From Eledone cirrhosa (Eukaryota), in contig OZ024743.1 in NCBI GenBank assembly GCA_964016885.1, forward strand, positions 346,518,001 through 346,582,000: a stretch of 64,000 nucleotides of DNA, read 5' to 3'. The position numbers and the translations under genes are program-made. Below are positions 11,745-61,305 of this stretch, piece by piece. The notes under the pieces were generated by a model. It was not told the origin of the DNA, searched no databases, and saw nothing but the letters and a program-made list of their open reading frames with translations. The stretch's first letter is position 1; every line of letters begins with the position of its first letter.

Positions 11745-12325
11745 AGGCGGTGGATTGGCAGTATCGGTAGAGAATCGGACGCCATGCTTTCCAGCATAGT
11801 TACGTCCCTTTACCATCTGAGTTCAAATCCCGCCAAGGTTGACTTTGCCTTTCATCCTTACGGGGTCGATAAAATAAAGTACCAGTAATGCACCGGGTAA
11901 TTGTTGGCCTTGTGCCTAAAGTAGAAACAATTATTAATCAGTATCAGTAGAACATAGGACACCATGCTTTGCCGCATTAGGAGTCATGACCCTTTAAGTT
12001 CTGAATTAAAATCCCACCAGGTTAACTTTGCCTTTCATACTTACGGGTTCGATAAAATAAAGTACCAGTAATGCGCTGGAGTGTTTCCTGGTCTTGTGAC
12101 CAAAGTAGAAACAATTATTAATTAAGCAATGGCAGTGGATTGGCAGTATCGGTAGAGCGTCAGACACCATGCTTTGCAGCATAGGGTTATGGCCCTTTAG
12201 GTTATGAATCCAAATCCCGCCGAGGTTACCTTTGCCTTTCATACTTATGGAGTCGATAAAATAAAGTACCAGTAATGCACTGGGCTAATTGCTTGCCTTG
12301 TGCCAAAAGTAGAAACAATTATTAA
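11745..12325 (+). mobile_element. Head-to-tail array of three family-1 SINEs
   Basis: Three ~180-200 bp units, each ending AAAGTAGAAACAATTATTAAT. Confidence 0.85.
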
Positions 12326-12639
12326 TTAGTTCGTGCTATCTCTGCCTGTATGTAACTTTATTGCTATTTCTGTCTGCCCCTTTCCAGAGATTTATCAATA
12401 CATTTGACATCATTTCTAATGAGAATATATACTGAAGATCGGCATTGCTAATGTTTATTTATAATGTTTTCTTTTCTACCATTACTAGTAGTAATATTAG
12501 GCTCACGCTTGTATATAGAAATTGTGTAAATTGCTAAAATCTTTTAAATGACACACACAAATGTACTCACAAATACATACAAATGCATATATTTGTGACA
12601 CGGCCGTAACTATGTATAATCAATAAAGACCTTAATGTG

Positions 12640-17579: not shown

Positions 17580-18035
17580 TTAATAGAGTTACGTCCCTTT
17601 ATGATCTGAGTTCAAATCCCGCCGAGGTTAAATTTGCCTTTCATCCTTACGGGGTCGATAAAGTATCAGTAATGTACTGTGTAATTGCTGGCCTTGTGCC
17701 TAAAATAGAAACAATTATTAATCTGTATCGAGCATAGTTTCTAGGTAAGCGGTTCTTGGAGTAATGATAGTAAATGTGTGAATAATAACGTGGTCGACTG
17801 TACAATATAGTTTTATACAAAGTATTTTATGTATATATATAGAAAGATTAATTGTTTCTACTTTAGGCACAAGGCCAGCAATTACCTAGTGTATTACTGG
17901 TACTTTATTTTATCGACCCCGTAAGGATGAAAGGCAAAGTCAACCTCGGCGGGATTTGAACTCAGATCGTAAAGGGACGTAACTATGCTAGAAAGCAGGG
18001 CGTCCGACTCTCTACCAATACTGCCAATCCACCAG
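17580..18035. mobile_element. Two family-1 SINEs in opposite orientation
   Basis: + copy ~17580-17720; - copy ~17850-18035. Confidence 0.8.
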
Positions 18036-18931
18036 AAAGATTAATATCTATTGGTCAGTTCAAGTTTGTGTAATTGATAATCTAGCATGATGTTCTATAA
18101 ACGGTTTTAACTTTACACATTAAAAATCAATTTTGAAGTAGTTTGTAATCGAAATAAAATTTTAGTCCAATCTAGAAAAGACGTAAAACCTGCACATGAA
18201 AATCGAAGTAGTAATAGAGAATACAATTAGTTCTGTTCTTTCCTACCTGCATCAACCACTTCAGTTTTCAGAAAAACTCTCAGACGTTCTCGCAGTATCT
18301 CCTTTTTTTCTTTTCTTCTTCATTACAAATATAATTCTCTTCATTTGTAAGCATATTCTTTAGTTTTAATTAATGTAAGATTTCAAAGTCAACAGAAACA
18401 TATCACGCCGCCTATGGCATGATTTTTGGAAACATTTGTTGCTTGGCAAAATTCAGCTACTAACGTGCATATGGAGCATATGGAAAATAACTATTATTTG
18501 TTACCCCGTATATATATATATATATGGGGGGGGGGGGGGGGGTATGTTCTACCTTTCTCTCTCTCCCACTCACATAGTCTCTTTCACTCTTACCATCTAT
18601 CGCCTTTCTACCACTCCCTCTCTGCTCCCTCATTATTTCCGTCTCCCCCTCTCACTTCCGTTTTTCTTTGTCTCTCCCTCTTTGCGTCTGTTCTTGCTAA
18701 GATCAGATGTTTTACTCTTCGCTCTCTCTTATGCTGTTAATACAGATTCAAGGATTACGCTCGGTCTCCCTTTTACCTACTCCCTTGGTTACTGCAAATT
18801 ACATGTCTCGTGCTTCCCCCTATCAATCGGTATGTTTTTCTTCTGCTTATTTTCTTTTTCTGTCGTACTCTTCGCTACGTCTCTACATTTTTTTTCTTCC
18901 TTAATAATTATTTATCTTAGTTATTAACGTA

Positions 18932-18996
18932 CTGTGGTGAGATGTACTGTCATTAATGTGTCGAAATATTAGCAGCCCGCAGCAGACAGCCGAAGA
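18932..18996 (+). ncRNA. Candidate non-circularly permuted hammerhead ribozyme (C1)
   Basis: CTGTGG-tga-GATGT-A-CTGTC-attaatgtgtc-GAA-ATATT-agcagc-CCGCAG-ca-GACAG-CCGAAGA. Confidence 0.55.
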
Positions 18997-19411
18997 GCGG
19001 GAATTGACCGCATGTTTATGTTTTGCTCACGTTTTCTAAACAATATTTATTAGTAACCGCACAGCTCCTTCATCACTTTTAATTAATATTAATTTATTGC
19101 TTTGATTTCCGTCCTTGTTGTTAATTCTGGTTTTGGACTTAAGTTCTGCCATTTTGGATTAAGTCTTTTCCTTCCTCCTTTCTCCCTCTTTCTTTCTCTC
19201 CCTTTCTCTCTCTCCCACTCACTTATTCTCTCTCTCTCTCTCCCCCACACACACACTTATTATTTTTCTCTCTTAGCCTCTATCGCATTTCTCACCCTAT
19301 TTATCTCTCTGCTCCCTTACCACTTCTCCTCAGCCCTCTCACTTTCGTGTTTCTTTGTTTCTCCCGCTTTGCACTTGTTCTCGCTAAGATCAGACGTTTT
19401 TCTCCTCTCTC

Positions 19412-19489
<78 letters not shown>

Positions 19490-19494
<5 letters not shown>

Positions 19495-19545
19495 ACTGCC
19501 TTTAATGAGTCGAAACATCAGTGACCCACAGCAGACAGCTGAAGA
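19490..19545 (+). ncRNA. Candidate permuted hammerhead (C2, 5' part lost)
   Basis: GATGA-A-CTGCCT-ttaatgagtc-GAA-ACATC-agtgac-CCACAG-c-AGACAG-CTGAAGA-g. Confidence 0.5.
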
Positions 19546-19590
19546 GTGGGAATTGTCCTTATGTATGTGCTTCTCTCACGTTTTCTAAAC

Positions 19591-19692
<102 letters not shown>

Positions 19693-20780: not shown

Positions 20781-21190
20781 GTATATATATGTATATGTAT
20801 TAAGTATGTATGTATGTATTTATTAAAATAAATACGTAAAATAAAATGTGCTTCTGTACTTTATGTTTCTCTGTTTTGAGATAAGAAGTCCAATATGGTA
20901 GAAAAGCAAACAGCTTTCAACATTTATTTTGACATATCATCAAAAAGTGGATAAAATATATAAAATGAAGAATATTTATTGAGCTCTCAAATTTCATCGT
21001 TGATTTACTGCAGATAACTGTGACTGTTATAACTGTATGTGAAGCAATAAATAGTTTCGTCTTGAATTTCTTGTTTACTCCAAGTAAGTTGTGATGTATA
21101 AGTACCATAAACAGTAGCATCAATAACATTACAGCTAAGAATTCTCGGATCCAAAATCTTCCGAAAGCAGCAGAAATGAATTAAAATTAA

Positions 21191-21830
21191 ATGCCCAGTT
21201 CTCCCACCCTATGAGTACGAACCATTGGATTCCAGAGGGAAGCGTGGTCGATCATGTCGAAAGCCACTGTGGAGTCGACGAAGGTGACATAGAGGCAGAG
21301 ATTTCTATGGAAAACCAAATATGTTTCGATAATAAGGCGGAAGACAGTATTGTGGTGAGCATTGGAACAATTAGGCAATAATCCAGTTTGTCGTAGACGA
21401 CGTCCGCTTTTGAGAGCGGGACAGCACGGCTGAGGAGGATCTTGATGAATACCTTGTTTGGGATGTAGAGATGTGTGATGTCCGTGTGGTTTCAGCAGAA
21501 AAGTTTGTCGCCTTTCCGTTTCCAGAACAGGAAGATAATACCTCGGGTCCAGTCATTTTGGAGCCGCTCCGACACCCATACTTGGTTGCTGATACAGACG
21601 AGCCATTGGATCATGTTATATCCCCCCGCCTTCAATAACTCCGCAGTGATAGTACAGGCTTTGTGTTTTTGAGTTTGTTCAGAGCGGCTCTGGTTTCATC
21701 GGGAATGCATGATTCTTTAGCTGAATCTGTGTCTGCGGCGGTTTCTCCTAAGTCTGGCCTTGTTTAGGCGAGGGGTCTTGTGTGTTCTGTAAATTCGAGA
21801 TAGCGTTACCACCTGGAGATTTGCTCCTGG
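21191..21830 (-). mobile_element. RTE-clade LINE reverse transcriptase fragment
   Basis: YVTFVDSTVAFDMIDHASLW (cf. FVDFxxAFDSVDRxxLW). Confidence 0.8.
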
Positions 21831-22384
21831 TAGGGCCTCCCTAGGCGGGCAGGGTTTCTGGGGAGGTTCCAGACCAACAGGGACCCGCGGCGCGTTGGCT
21901 CGCCGCCAATATCACAAGCCCATCATCCGACTATTCTGCGGAGTGCCACAAACCGCCCAGAATAACCATCAACCTGTTACGAAACCAACTAGAAGAAACC
22001 AAACTGCTCAACATGGACCCCTGCATGAAGTGGACCCCTGCATGCCCCACCAACGAGAAAGTGCGCCATAAAATTCGTGTTGCCAAATGGAATCTCCTTT
22101 GCCCAGGAGCAGCCACCCTGATATCCCGAGAGCTATCACACCACAACATCACAATGGCAGGACTCTGAGAGACTCGCAGGCCTGGGAGCAGGGAATTCAT
22201 CACGAGACATCACTGCCTCATCTGGAGTGGCTCTAAGGATAGGACGGTCCTCTGCGGTGTGGCACTGGCCATGGTCATGCCCAAGCACATCCGCAAGTCA
22301 CTCATCAGCTGGAACCCGGTGAGTCACCGTTTGCTGTCCGCCCGTTTTCTTCGCCGGCACGGGAAGATGACTAACATCGTGGTA
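21830..22384 (+). mobile_element. RTE-clade LINE 5' UTR + APE endonuclease fragment
   Basis: KIRVAKWN...AGL*ETRRPGS...LIWSG...GVAL...SLISWNPVSHRLLSARF. Confidence 0.8.
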
Positions 22385-23149
22385 AGGAAATCCCACCCAA
22401 TGACATCACAATATTTTCTTACGTTAGGCTTAAATTGTTGAGTGTGGTAATTGTTAGACATTTCGTTGGTTAAAGAAATGTCAATAGTAAAAGTGCTGGT
22501 GGCATGATCCGAGCCTAGATTCATATTATTTTCTGATTCCCAGTTTTTTGTAAAGGTAGGTGCTGAGAGACAAGACCATAAATGATCTATTGTTGAAATA
22601 CCGTTATTAAAGACTCTGTAGATAGGGAATATGGTAAGGTATGTAAAATGAAGTTGTATTTATTCATAATCTCTATGAGATATTCTCTTTCTTTATACAA
22701 TTGTTTCTTATGTCAGAGATCCAAAATGTTTGATGTGCATTGAAAGCCCCTGAAATGAGTGTATAGCTGTGTGAAATTGATTCGTCTGGGAAATATTTAA
22801 TTGTTGTTATTATCTCTGTGCTTTTAATTGTGGGTAGTTATAAATATTTATTCAAGTGGAGTCTAGCTTTCTTGTGTACGTATACACAATATCTATCGTG
22901 TTACACTCCGTTTGTATTATGTCTAATTTATAGTCAAATTTTGATCTAGTCATTATGAGACACTTTGATGCTGCATTATAGCATGTATTGAATCGAAAAA
23001 AAAGGAAAGTTTATGATATCCCTGTTGTACATGTTAAATAATTTAGAATGGGGTCTTGAGAGACAAAAATATATAATAAATGTGCTATAAAGTTTTAAAT
23101 ACAATTCCAAAAGTTCACGCTGTTTGTTTAGGTTGATGTATGAATTGTT

Positions 23150-23730
23150 CATTGTTAACTTTGCCTTACGGGGTAGATAAAATAAAGTGCCAGTAACGTA
23201 CTGGGTAATTGTGGCCTTGTGCCAAAAGTAGAAACAAATATTATCGTTGACGCTTGAGGGCGTTGAATTAGCAGTATCGTAGAGGGTCTGACGCCATGCT
23301 TTGCAGCAAAGAGTTATGGCCCTTTATATTCTGAGTTCAAATCCTGCCGAGGTTGACTTTGTCTTTCACCCTTACGGGGTCGACAAAATAAAGCACCAGT
23401 AATGTACTGGGGGTAATTGCTGTCCTTGTGACAAAAGTAGAAACAATTATTATAGCTGGCGGTCGATAAAATAAAGTACCAGTAATACACTGGGATAATT
23501 GCTAGCCTTGTGCCAAAAGTAGAAACAATTATCATCGTTGACGGTGAATTGGCAATATCAGTAGAGGGTCGGATGTCATGCCTTGCAGCATAGAGTTACA
23601 CCCCTTTACGGTCTGAGTTCAAATTCTTCCGAGGTTAACTTTGCCTTCATCCTTACGGGGTGGATGAAATAAAGTACCAGTAATGCACTGGATAATTGCT
23701 GAGCCAAAAATATAAACACTTATTATTGTT
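23150..23730 (+). mobile_element. Tandem array of ~4 family-1 SINE units (some truncated)
   Basis: Repeated core ending AAAAGTAGAAACAA at ~23235, 23445 and 23528, with a degenerate last unit. Confidence 0.85.
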
Positions 23731-38681: not shown

Positions 38682-38684
<3 letters not shown>

Positions 38685-38846
38685 GTCTCACTTTCTCCAC
38701 CCAATTCTTTTTATCCCAATAACTTATTTTAGTTATTGTTCGCTCTAGCCTGATGTATCTGATCTTTAATGCGAAGAAATACCTATGATGGCTAGTAGAT
38801 CACTGACTATGGATAGTCCTGGCTTCTCTTTCTAATTTTTACTTCA

Positions 38847-38945
<99 letters not shown>

Positions 38946-40025
38946 AGTAAAAATTAGAAAGAGAAGCCAGGACTATCCATAGTCAGTGATCTACTAGCCA
39001 TCATAGGTATTTATTCGCATTAAAGATCAGATACATCAGGCTAGAGCGAACAATAACTAAAATAAGTTATTGGGATAAAAAGAATTGGGTGGAGAAAGTG
39101 AGACAGGTGAACAAACAAGAATGGTGAGGCAACATAAAGAGAGGAAAACATGAGAAAATCAAGTCAGTGATTCATTTGAACATAAGAACTTGCGAATATT
39201 GACGAGAAGACGAAAGAAACATCCGTACCATGCGAAAAGTGAGCGAGAAAAGAATTTCGCACGGTGTCGGACGATGGAGGAAGTGAGAGAGAGGGTGAAT
39301 AGCAGAGAGTGAGTGAGTGAAAGTGTGAGGAAGAGGCTAGCCGAGAGAGGGTGACTAGCAGAGGGGGAGAATGAAAGTAAGAGCGAGAAGAGAGGAGAGG
39401 AGAGAGAAAGAGGATAACAGTAAGGGAAGAGAAAAAGACAGGCGACAACCAAGGGGAAAGCATTTATGAATTAAAAATGGCGTGCTGTGTTGTTGCGAAT
39501 GTGATACATATGAAGTAAAGATTAAAAAGAGAAACCAAGACTATCCATCATCAGTGATCTACTCTGCTAGTCACCCTCTCTCGGCTAGCCTATTCCTCAC
39601 ACTTTCACTCACTCACTCTCTGCTACTCACCCTCTCTCTCTCACTACCTCCATCGTCCGACACCGTGCGAAATTATTTTCTCGCTCACTTTTCCTATGGT
39701 ACCGATGTTTCTTTCGTCTTCTCGTCAATGTTCGCAAGTTCTTATGTTCAAATGAATCACTGATTTGATTTTGTCATTTTTTCCTCTCTTTACGTTGCCC
39801 CACCATTCTTGTTTGTTCACCTGACTCTCTTTCTCCGCCCAATTCCTATAAATCGAATAACTTATTTTAGTTATTCTTCGCGCTAGCCTGAGGTATCTGA
39901 TCTTTAATGCGAAGAAATACCTATGATGGCTAGTAGATCAGTGATAATGAATATTCCTGGCTTCTCATGCTAATTATTACTTCATATGTATCAGAATCGC
40001 AACAACACAGCACGCCATTTTTCAT
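38682..40025. mobile_element. Non-coding tandem element (subfamily B) in a doubly inverted arrangement
   Basis: + arm 38682-38850, palindromic microsatellite, - segment 38941-39563, + segment 39564-40025 ending at (TA)n. Confidence 0.75.
39883..39947 (+). ncRNA. Candidate non-circularly permuted hammerhead (B)
   Basis: CTAGCC-tg-AGGTAT-C-TGATCT-ttaatgcgaa-GAA-ATACCT-atgat-GGCTAG-t-AGATCA-gTGATaA; an intact AGATCA-CTGATGA is present in the sister copy at 39548-39560 (-). Confidence 0.6.
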
Positions 40026-55028: not shown

Positions 55029-55573
55029 CGTTTCTGAATTTGTTTAGCAAGATTCTTTATCTGAAAACGTGTGTTGAAACCGATATTGTTATACTTTGGG
55101 AGGGTCATGTTGCCAATAAGAAACACACGCACCATGTTTCACTCCAATTTATTATAAATTAAATTATAATTTTAAAATGTATACATTTCCGGTTGGTTGG
55201 TTGGTTCCATAGCCAGACGGTTGTTCATATATTGTTAAAGTTATTTCGTCACACAGTATGTGACCTCTTCAGTGACTGGGGATTATTTTCTTTGTTTTGT
55301 GCCTCTCCTTTGTTCTGTCCTACGCCAACAAGATGGCATGGGACAGAACAAAGGAGAGGCACAAAACAAAGAAAATAATCCCCAGTCACTGAAGAGGTCA
55401 CAGAATGTGTGACGAAAGAACTTTGACAATATATGAACAACCGTTTGGTTGTGGAACCAACCAACCAACGGGAATTTATAAATTTGTTAATTTATAATTT
55501 AATTTATGATAAATTGGAGTGAAAGGTACTGGTGCGTGTGTTTCTTATTGGCAACATGACCCTCCCAAAGTAT

Positions 55574-55581
<8 letters not shown>
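55029..55581 (-). mobile_element. Fold-back pLTR with paired hammerheads
   Basis: Inverted repeat 55083-55581 with a short loop near 55330; unpaired tail 55029-55082. Confidence 0.85.
55385..55427 (+). ncRNA. Minimal type-I hammerhead
   Basis: gtca-CTGAAGA-g-gtcaca-gaatg-tgtgac-GAAA-gaac-TT-tgac; sister on - at 55234-55276. Confidence 0.75.
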
Positions 55582-60085: not shown

Positions 60086-61305
60086 AGAATAGAAATGGCT
60101 GTGTATGTGCTATTTAAGGTAACTTAAAATGCAGTTGGAATACGAAGAAAGCAAGAACAGGTGGGGGGGGGGGGTCCTCATCAGTTGTCTACTGGGGTTC
60201 TAGGATATTTCTACGCTTTAAAGACAAGATACCACATCACCCCCAGGACGTCAATAGCTGGATAAGTTATTGGGAAAACGAAGGAAGGAGGAAAAAAAAC
60301 AAAGGGGAAGAAAAGAGAAAGAGTAAGAAAACAGCGAAAAACAAACAAACCGAGCAATGTGCGAGCAACTATAGGTAGGAAATCCAAGACCACTCCATCA
60401 GAGAACTTAAGTTCGAGACCGTGTAATCGAGAGAAAAGACACACATCCGATCGCTGCAGTTGTAAGTGAGAAGAGAACTGCTAAACGGTCAGACGAGGGG
60501 GCGAAAGTAAGAGGGAGAAAGGGAGAGGAAGAAAGTGGGGTATGAGTAGATAAGGAGAAAGGGAGGAGAAGAAAGAGGGGTGAGAGTAGAAAGTGGCGAA
60601 ATAGGTAGAAGAGGAGAGAAGAATGGTCACAGCGAAAAACATGATGATATATATGGAGAATAGAAATGGTTGTGTAGTTGCTATTTAAAGTAATTTAAAA
60701 TGCAGTGGGAATGCGAAGGAAGCAAGAACAGTGGGTGGGGAGTTTTCCTCATCAGTGTTCTACTGGGAGTCTAGGATATTTCTACGCTTTAAAGACAAGA
60801 TACCACTTCACCCCAGGGCGTCAATAACTGTATAAGTTATTGGGAAAATGAAGGAAGGAGGGAAGGAAAGCAAAAGGGAAGAAAAGAGAAACAGTAACAC
60901 AACAGCGAAAAAACAAACAAACCAAGCAATGCGCGAGCAACTATAGGTGGGAAATCCAAGACCACTCCATAAGAGAACTTAAGTTCGAGAGCGTGTAATC
61001 GAGAGGAGAGACACACGTTTGATCGCCGCAGTTGTACGTGAGAAAAGAACTGCTTAAACGGTCAGACGAGGGATTGAAAGTGAGAGGGAGAAAGGGAGAG
61101 GAAGAAAGTGGGATAAGAGTAGATAGGGAGAAAGGGAGCGGAAGAAAGAGGGGTGAGAGTAGAAAGTGGTGAAATAGGTATAAGAGGAGAGAAGAATGGT
61201 CACAGCAAAAAACATGATGAAATATATGGAGAATAGAAATGGTTGTGTAGTTGCTATTTAAAGTAACTTAAAATGCAGTGGGAATACGAAGGAAGCAAGA
61301 ACAGG
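60083..61305 (-). mobile_element. Non-coding tandem element (subfamily A): 2 x ~572 bp + ~80 bp
   Basis: TGGAGAATAGAAATGG at 60083, 60654 and 61227; strong purine/pyrimidine strand asymmetry; (TA)n on both sides. Confidence 0.85.
60178..60246 (-). ncRNA. Candidate non-circularly permuted hammerhead (A1, best copy)
   Basis: Minus strand: CTGGGG-gtgatgt-GGTAT-C-TTGTCT-ttaaagcgta-GAA-ATATC-ctagaa-CCCCAG-t-AGACAA-CTGATGA; second copy at 60749-60816. Confidence 0.65.

Follow-up and report, generated by a model that had tools for sequence, protein, structure and literature searches.

Does a dispersed repeat of Eledone cirrhosa carry a hammerhead ribozyme with permuted strands, and was its pairing kept while its sequence diverged? 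The question was raised by two tandem repeat units in the window, by which we mean the whole 64,000-nucleotide stretch analysed (positions 346,518,001 to 346,582,000 of contig OZ024743.1, assembly GCA_964016885.1). We placed the window on a 379-Mb contig of the 3.0-Gb assembly.

Strand order and detection of the fold

The strands named in the preliminary description could be read in the window where it had put them, including stem I, stem III, the outer helix, GAAA and G10.1 (Table 1). Along the motif the cleavage site comes first, followed by GAAA and then CUGANGA, which is the order of type SGC of Eckert 2023. The circular C, G, S order of type I, II and III hammerheads was not found, the block order being reversed. 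A descriptor for the SGC order returned 89 distinct matches in 632,317 bases (family-enriched loci plus the window), 56 of which had the two extra helices, and it returned 0 matches in reversed sequence and in each of three shuffles. The C1 family majority has the same stems as first described (GATG-U/A-CATC, CTGTCT/AGACAG and CTGTGG/CCACAG), and 41 of 48 aligned C1 copies have the triplet GUA. Core letters C3, G5, A6, G8, A9, G12, A13, A14, A15.1 and U16.1 were invariant in 11/11 aligned rows.

As expected, since Rfam models cover the circular order, an Rfam scan of the window found no hammerhead among the 150 listed of 187 matches (E up to 1); those listed were only microsatellite-driven miRNA families. 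Single-strand folding of C copies did not yield the model (z = 0.53, 0.67, 0.56 and -0.24) and is uninformative because the method cannot form pseudoknots and the model is a triple pseudoknot. The arm of P and stem III appeared in single-strand folds only for subfamilies A and B.

Table 1 Features of the permuted hammerhead and its repeat in the window
Feature	Position	Strand	Basis
Block S: stem III 5' strand GAUG, U16.1 (18945), A17 (18946)	18941..18946	+	GATGTA in sequence; family majority; subfamily comparison
Predicted cut position	after 18946	+	GUA triplet 18944-18946
Stem I 5' strand, pairs with 18984-18989	18947..18952	+	4/6 pairs with a both-sided change
Outer helix P 5' strand, pairs with 18977-18982	18932..18937	+	5/6 pairs with a both-sided change
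Strand X, 5' partner of stem II 11.2-11.6	18927..18931	+	94.5% of cells paired
P0 hairpin 5' of core (18903-18909 with 18919-18925)	18903..18925	+	Predicted folds; all subfamily majorities
Kink-turn-like loop, unbulged strand U-G-A	18938..18940	+	A invariant, 11/11 rows
TTAA linker, stem I to stem II	18953..18956	+	TTAA in 50/55 C1 rows
Block G: 11.6-11.1 (18957-18962), G12-A13-A14-A15.1 (18963-18966), stem III 3' strand	18957..18970	+	GAAA invariant, 11/11
Kink-turn-like bulged strand (3-nt bulge, GA, 1 nt) and P 3' strand	18971..18982	+	GA damaged in unit 1
Block C: stem I 3' strand, core CCGAAGA (18990-18996), G10.1 (18997)	18984..18997	+	C at position 4
Unit 1 of non-coding repeat (subfamily C1), almost complete; approximate ends	18548..19149	+	BLAST to C1 loci
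Unit 2, tandem copy, ends in (TA)n at 19593	19150..19592	+	Sequence; comparison with C1 loci
Second hammerhead motif, predicted dead, CTGAAGA at 19539-19545	19490..19546	+	A at 16.1 (19494)
Subfamily A motif, ends approximate	60165..60270	-	Sequence comparison
Second tandem subfamily A copy, stem I damaged	near 60750-60840		
Subfamily B motif, ends approximate	38717..38825	+	Inverted twin ~38965-39070; third copy near 39855-39960

Covariation among subfamilies

We compared 23 pairs between majorities of aligned genome copies (47 rows for C1, 36 for A, 42 for B and 32 for C2), with D1, D2, E and A2 represented by single copies. Between the C1 and C2 majorities six pairs had changed, all on both sides. 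C1 differed from B by both-sided changes at 11 of the 23 pairs, one wobble and no broken pair, and from one D1 copy by 13 both-sided changes, again with none broken; against A there were three both-sided changes, one wobble and two broken pairs. Subfamily E parsed out of register in this comparison. Stem III reads GAUG/CAUC in C1 and C3, GACG/CGUC in C4, GACA/UGUC in C2, GGUA/UACC in B and D, and GGUA/UAUC in A. Pair 16.2-15.2 is G-C in C against A-U in A and B, and pair 16.4-15.4 is A-U in C against G-C in B. Since C1 and B differ by both-sided changes and no broken pair, the main claim of the preliminary description, that stem III covaries between subfamily C and subfamilies A and B in a permuted hammerhead, holds at both of these pairs, at the second of them relative to B.

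A second test used 11 well-preserved copies, picked by hand, that aligned over 75 columns with no gap. Paired cells made up 97.6% of 253, a percentage that hand-picking raises, and the majority comparison is the cleaner evidence. Both-sided changes occurred at 14 of the 23 pairs, including three of the five in stem III. None of 500 shuffles scored as high, a count that is not a probability because the aligned rows are related, and slid controls were 26-52% paired. The result was comparable for a 13-row set with A and E. The covariation identifies stems I and III, the outer helix P and a composite stem II as paired elements of the predicted fold.

In clade C the covariation of stem III can be followed stepwise, one pair at a time. 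Subfamily C4 (L227, L230, L231, L232 and L240) has a TTGA or TTGG linker with stem III GACG/CGUC, and by sequence comparison it is an intermediate between C3 and C2. Subfamily E (L115, minus strand near 980; G000:C1, 152.19 Mb) has a GUC triplet and is otherwise diverged; its stem III is GAUG/CAUC, as in C1, and its strand X pairs 11.1 while 10.1 is unpaired, as in Naiad_Obim.

Stem II and the kink-turn-like loop

The preliminary description had also proposed a canonical G10.1-C11.1 pair. Positions 10.1 and 11.1 were paired in 11/11 rows, by four pair types, and in unit 1 G10.1 (18997) faces C11.1 (18962). Strand X, just 5' of helix P, pairs with 11.2-11.6 in 94.5% of cells, and its pair at 11.2 shows a both-sided change, with A-U in clade C and U-A in B and D. 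On this comparative evidence, stem II is built from one pair after the core (10.1-11.1) and five pairs from strand X. In subfamily A a G lies opposite an A both at 10.1-11.1 and at X-11.1.

Helix P joins strand X to the stem I 3' strand, in the place of the type-SGC brace helix. At the junction between P and stem III, one strand is U-G-A and the other has a 3-nt bulge, GA and one base; this loop is longer in subfamilies A and E. The kink-turn rule is a canonical helix, a 3-nt bulge, and tandem G-A and A-G pairs, and the corresponding pattern was seen, at the level of sequence, in C1, B, D, A2 and Naiad_Obim. The unbulged strand is TGA in C1, B and D1, and ATA or TTA, with U for G, in C2 and C3. 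The GA of the bulged strand is present in 10/11 aligned rows, unit 1 being the sole exception with AG instead. Upstream, the P0 hairpin formed in the predicted folds of unit 1, L026, L155, L088 and L069 (five of the seven folded; the other two lacked the stretch). The permuted hammerhead fold as earlier described stands, but that description had overlooked three parts: the 5' strand building stem II, the loop resembling a kink-turn and the hairpin upstream.

Two further details concern the sequence after the core. The letters after 10.1 are GG in C2, B, D, E and the octopus Naiads. B, C1 and C2 could each fold a short GGA...TCC hairpin, ahead of which C1 has an extra C.

The host repeat and its decay

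The motif lies in the 3' part of both tandem units of a ~620-nt pyrimidine-rich, non-coding repeat, across which open reading frames were only low-complexity frames. Tandem units at other loci are spaced 414-805 nt apart (620 and 626 in two). A search with unit 1 DNA gave at least 55 matches (40 scored of 466 candidates), a 27-letter piece gave 183 matches at ≤2 mismatches (sister subfamily C3 included; control 0), and window motifs A and B gave 1777 and 2088 first-look candidates, respectively; these totals are lower bounds and not copy numbers.

In a BLAST of the unit 1 stretch, homology to C1 loci began at 18547-18560 in many copies. Six pairs are altered in unit 1, five of them wobbles and one a mismatch. 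In unit 2 a (CT)n(GA)n run at 19401-19491 has taken the place of the middle, and the motif of this unit is without U16.1, strand X and the P 5' strand, the whole 5' arm being lost to the (GA)n run. Judging from this damage, both units are likely inactive or weak as ribozymes. Other C1 copies are similarly worn: among the 43 of 47 that were scored, changed cells were 1 compensatory, 43 wobble and 81 broken, and all pairs were intact in only 4. The genomic copies thus appear to be decaying now, with no sign of selection. Mismatches were fewer at core positions (8/342) than in the flank (109/1619), a difference that we set aside because the copies had been gathered with core-containing queries.

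One locus (L023, G000:C11:14636837-14637474) has a tandem array of ~15 copies of a 44-48-nt piece, derived from the C1 part running from X and P through the site to stem I, directly 5' of a whole C1 motif.

Penelope-like traits and a possible link to Naiads

Coverage of C1 copies falls toward the 5' end, forming a gradient of 5' truncation. Of 106 C1 3' parts, 30 end in (TA)n ~45 nt past the core, 53 continue, 15 are without an anchor and 8 are other, and among longer copies 23 of the 33 scored end in (TA)n ~95 nt past the core. Neighbouring C1 copies (n = 15 pairs) were tandem in seven cases, head-to-head in eight and tail-to-tail in none. The available portion of Craig 2021 (PMC8557442) describes (TA)n targets, 5' truncation, partial tandems and head-to-head inverted copies for Naiads, and the (TA)n ends, truncation and tandem and head-to-head copies of C1 match these traits. 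The 5' ends of truncated copies did not peak at the predicted cut site (3/22 within 0 to +2; range -25 to +35).

In the Naiad_Obim and Naiad_Ovul sequences of Craig 2021, by-eye inspection of the 3' ends gave the order P0, X, P, kink-turn, AUGG-UA, stem I and a 1-nt linker, followed by a stem II strand, GAAA, CCAU, P, stem I and CUGAUGA; X also pairs 11.1, and 10.1 is unpaired. Naiad_Esco has the same block order in part, also by eye. It is on this by-eye reading of a shared fold that the proposed link between the C1 repeat and Naiads rests. A search for an autonomous Naiad partner covered 38 distinct GIY-YIG loci (of 150 scored, from 10,597 candidates); none matched the C1 unit, and in all 38 the endonuclease was C-terminal. 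A search for a 20-nt stretch of the motif from octopus Naiads gave no exact match in this genome.

Three Penelope-like elements (L264, L265 and L266) have frames of 938, 844 and 1096 aa from stop to stop, with a reverse transcriptase and then a C-terminal GIY-YIG domain. Loose scans linked neither a canonical nor an SGC hammerhead to them.

Core position 4 in subfamily C1

CUGANGA had been reported as kept, yet unit 1 and the C1 majority read CCGAAGA. The canonical core of the preliminary description was a chimera of two damaged units, unit 1 having supplied U16.1 and unit 2 having supplied U4. Among 69 C1 copies (80 distinct contexts minus 8 sister-family and 3 chance rows) we counted 45 CCG, 14 CTG and 10 CCA. 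An exact pattern left open at positions 4 and 5 had 85 matches in a hand tally (49 CCG, 23 CTG, 10 CCA and 3 CTA), the CTG count of which was confirmed by a separate search. A further hand tally of 94 exact matches gave 32 CCG, 9 CTG and 6 CCA with G2.1, and 42 CTG, 5 CCG and 0 CCA with A2.1. When a tree was built on 142 of the 173 rows, masking positions 4, 5, 1.1 and 2.1 (quick search, midpoint root), C1 formed one clade of 68 rows (SH-aLRT 99) that adjoined C3 rows and held 48 of the 50 rows with C at position 4. The association with letter 2.1 and the masked tree together indicate that the C1 master had C at position 4 and the pair C1.1-G2.1.

The U4 seen in some C1 copies is likely CpG decay. 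CTG and CCA stand at 14:10 (p = 0.54), close to six other CpG sites in C1, and the 19 U4 rows of the C1 clade are scattered within the tree; given this ratio and scatter, we rejected the CTG copies as a separate active lineage. The CTGAAGA of unit 2 likely arose by CpG decay as well.

When the subfamily consensus was rebuilt from copies, CUGANGA was absent in C1, an outcome that the preliminary description had named as refuting its claim, but sister subfamily C3 had CUGAAGA with the same stem III, and because of C3 the hammerhead claim survives. U4 is present in C2, C3, A, B, D and E. Its replacement by C marks one nested clade, which left at least dozens of copies and likely some hundreds. 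On the branch to C1 every other core letter is unchanged, and pair 1.1-2.1 changed from U-A to C-G. Two C2 rows (L156 and L171) also read CCGAAGA, a second, sporadic occurrence of this base.

According to Perreault 2011 (PMC3088659), citing Ambros and Flores, a naturally occurring U4C core lowers activity in vitro but still permits viroid infection. CYGANGA is a descriptor used in print, with C at position 4 as one core change allowed, in the available portion of PMC13481778. In the accessible part of Roberts 2023, a mutational scan found low activity for every single mutant of the CUGA region. By analogy with these cores, cutting in C1 was likely slowed by the C at position 4.

Proposed mechanism and alternatives

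By the comparative evidence, this Penelope-like repeat clade carries a genuine hammerhead variant shaped by selection on its structure, with cutting predicted from the fold; we infer its products and its role in transposition. For the window itself we favor, with good but not full confidence, a reading in which two decayed tandem Penelope-like units carry a hammerhead fold in SGC order, with a predicted cut after GUA that was likely slowed by the C at position 4. P would be the stem I-II brace of type SGC, relocated together with strand X to the 5' end and linked to stem III by way of the kink-turn-like loop. The RNA would then resemble a type-SGC ribozyme whose ends had been joined and which had been re-opened after 10.1, folding as one molecule. 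In active masters, the ribozyme may have cleaved tandem read-through transcripts at one site in each unit, 95-145 nt upstream of the unit 3' end, and a Naiad reverse transcriptase/GIY-YIG protein would have copied the RNA into (TA)n sites. Slow cutting may have sufficed for amplification of C1, or cutting may not have been rate-limiting.

The alternative that survives best, though we think it unlikely, is that the fold was kept as a platform for protein binding, either by the Naiad protein or by a kink-turn-binding protein of the host, and that C1 no longer cuts. U4C would then be a catalytic loss that did not stop copying. Consistent with this, C1 amplified while carrying C at position 4, mutants of the CUGA region were low in activity (in the accessible part of Roberts 2023), truncation did not peak at the predicted site, and the lack of canonical hammerheads does not hinder Naiads (in the available portion of Craig 2021, PMC8557442). 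Against it, the other core letters did not change on the branch to C1 while pair 1.1-2.1 changed on both sides, and C at position 4 is the only core change that the descriptor allows (PMC13481778, as available) and works in a viroid (PMC3088659, as available).

We regard as improbable a dimer, or trans cutting between tandem units, in which TTAA would help two molecules to form the ordinary hammerhead order. Dimer-forming minimal hammerheads of Penelope-like elements have a stub or very short stem III with a palindrome; they resemble the present motif in their Penelope-like host and tandem copies, whereas here a 5-bp stem III is closed by P, the order is non-circular and a conserved long palindrome is lacking. 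TTAA is widespread (50/55 C1, 23/24 C2 and 23/25 A rows), copies are often in tandem, and subfamily A has an 8-mer palindrome in 22/25 rows with a self-duplex of -5.0 kcal/mol. The palindrome was found, however, in 2/55 C1 rows and 0/46 rows of C2, C3 and C4, and the C1, C2, B, D1 and E sequences tested had no 8-mer palindrome and gave 0.0 to +0.4 kcal/mol. The linker palindrome earlier read as a hint of dimerisation (CATTAATG) is a single-copy mutation in C1, found in 1/50 copies against 36/50 with the octamer CTTTAATG, and the hint fails for this reason. TTGA or TTGG replaces TTAA in 10/21 rows of one clade C row set, and the linker is 1 nt in Naiad_Obim and Naiad_Ovul. The palindrome flanks are already taken by stems I and II, and the fixed spacing and helix P close the fold inside one strand. 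We rejected the palindrome dimer on its rarity in C1, the TTGA/TTGG linkers, the use of its flanks by the stems and the 5-bp stem III.

An ordinary type-SGC hammerhead of the published kind, whose stem II would use the strand immediately following CUGANGA, would explain the block order, the short stem I-II linker and the pair 10.1-11.1 in 11/11 rows, but it is very improbable because 10.2-11.2 is unpaired in 5/11 rows and 10.3-11.3 in 11/11, where X pairs in 94.5% of cells. We rejected the published register, in which the subfamily majorities reach at most a bulged 3-4 pairs. Complementarity that arose by chance in a worn repeat, with which the absence of a hammerhead among the Rfam matches listed and the unremarkable folding energy of the window copies would agree, is scarcely credible, as it is already contradicted by the compensatory changes and by the descriptor and shuffle controls.

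Comparison with known systems

Type SGC, in the available portion of Eckert 2023 (PMC10085705), has the order site, GAAA, CUGANGA, a short stem I-II linker and a brace helix, and cleaves in vitro. That portion names none from known organisms' genomes except one GCS candidate, and of its 583 sequences three are atypical, none of them at position 4. Permuted non-circular hammerheads are, on the same account, known almost only from environmental sequence, and the three blocks are assumed to be unsplittable. The present motif is like type SGC (HRIMA-1, SGC variants) in order, short linker, the additional helix that links stems I and II at their far ends, and core letters. It differs in that block C is split after 10.1, with the remainder of the strand for stem II and one brace strand lying 5' of block S; these 5'-moved strands enter stem III through the kink-turn-like loop, and a P0 hairpin lies upstream. 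It also lies in an animal genome repeat, and C1 carries C at position 4. The predicted fold would work like type SGC and is not a member of it as defined, because block C is split.

The repeat is like Naiad elements in (TA)n targets, truncation, tandems and head-to-head copies and, by eye, in the same 3' fold; it differs in having a unit without an ORF. The available portion of Craig 2021 (PMC8557442) reports no canonical hammerhead in Naiads, marking only 'HHR_core' or 'HHR_half_core'. Non-LTR retrozymes (bioRxiv 10.64898/2026.07.22.740005) are similarly short, non-autonomous, tandem, hammerhead-bearing derivatives of Penelope-like elements, although the available part of that preprint has no permuted hammerhead and no mollusc and uses Naiad just as a clade name. 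The viroid U4C hammerhead (via Perreault 2011, PMC3088659, as available) shares C at position 4, but there it is one variant in the ordinary strand order, whereas here it was fixed in a repeat subfamily master. A literature search on permuted hammerheads, Naiads, the kink-turn and octopus retrotransposons, with subscription papers mostly outside it, found no description of this motif.

We lean, by a small degree, toward the combined view that this wiring lies outside the six permutations of Eckert 2023, supplies the active ribozyme missing from Naiads and from the short elements derived from them, and was carried by a slow U4C master that still amplified. If so, the split block C breaks the assumption of unsplittable blocks and the fold fills the hammerhead gap of Naiads; stem II would be formed from three strands, with a kink-turn folding stem III back into the stem I-II brace. 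C3 with U4 and C1 with C at position 4 are matched subfamilies that make the need of Penelope-like elements for a hammerhead directly testable, and would provide a natural series for how much cutting Penelope-like transposition needs.

Other repeats in the window

Two subfamily B motifs, 99% identical, lie tail-to-tail around a (CT)(TA)(GA) run at 38682-39110. Both carry the same damaged core, CTGACTA, which suggests copying or conversion after the damage. A long inverted repeat at 55107-55580, with arms of ~200 nt that are near perfect at the centre, ends in (TA)n and is probably another head-to-head repeat pair; it has CTGAAGA at 55389-55395 with GAAA 17 nt upstream, and the descriptor did not match it. 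Another dispersed repeat with the core ...GCCTTTCATC...GTCGATAAA, a putative octopus SINE, occurs at 17600-18000, 11939-12328 and 23378-23532. Broken reading frames at 21139-22441 presumably represent a LINE endonuclease region.
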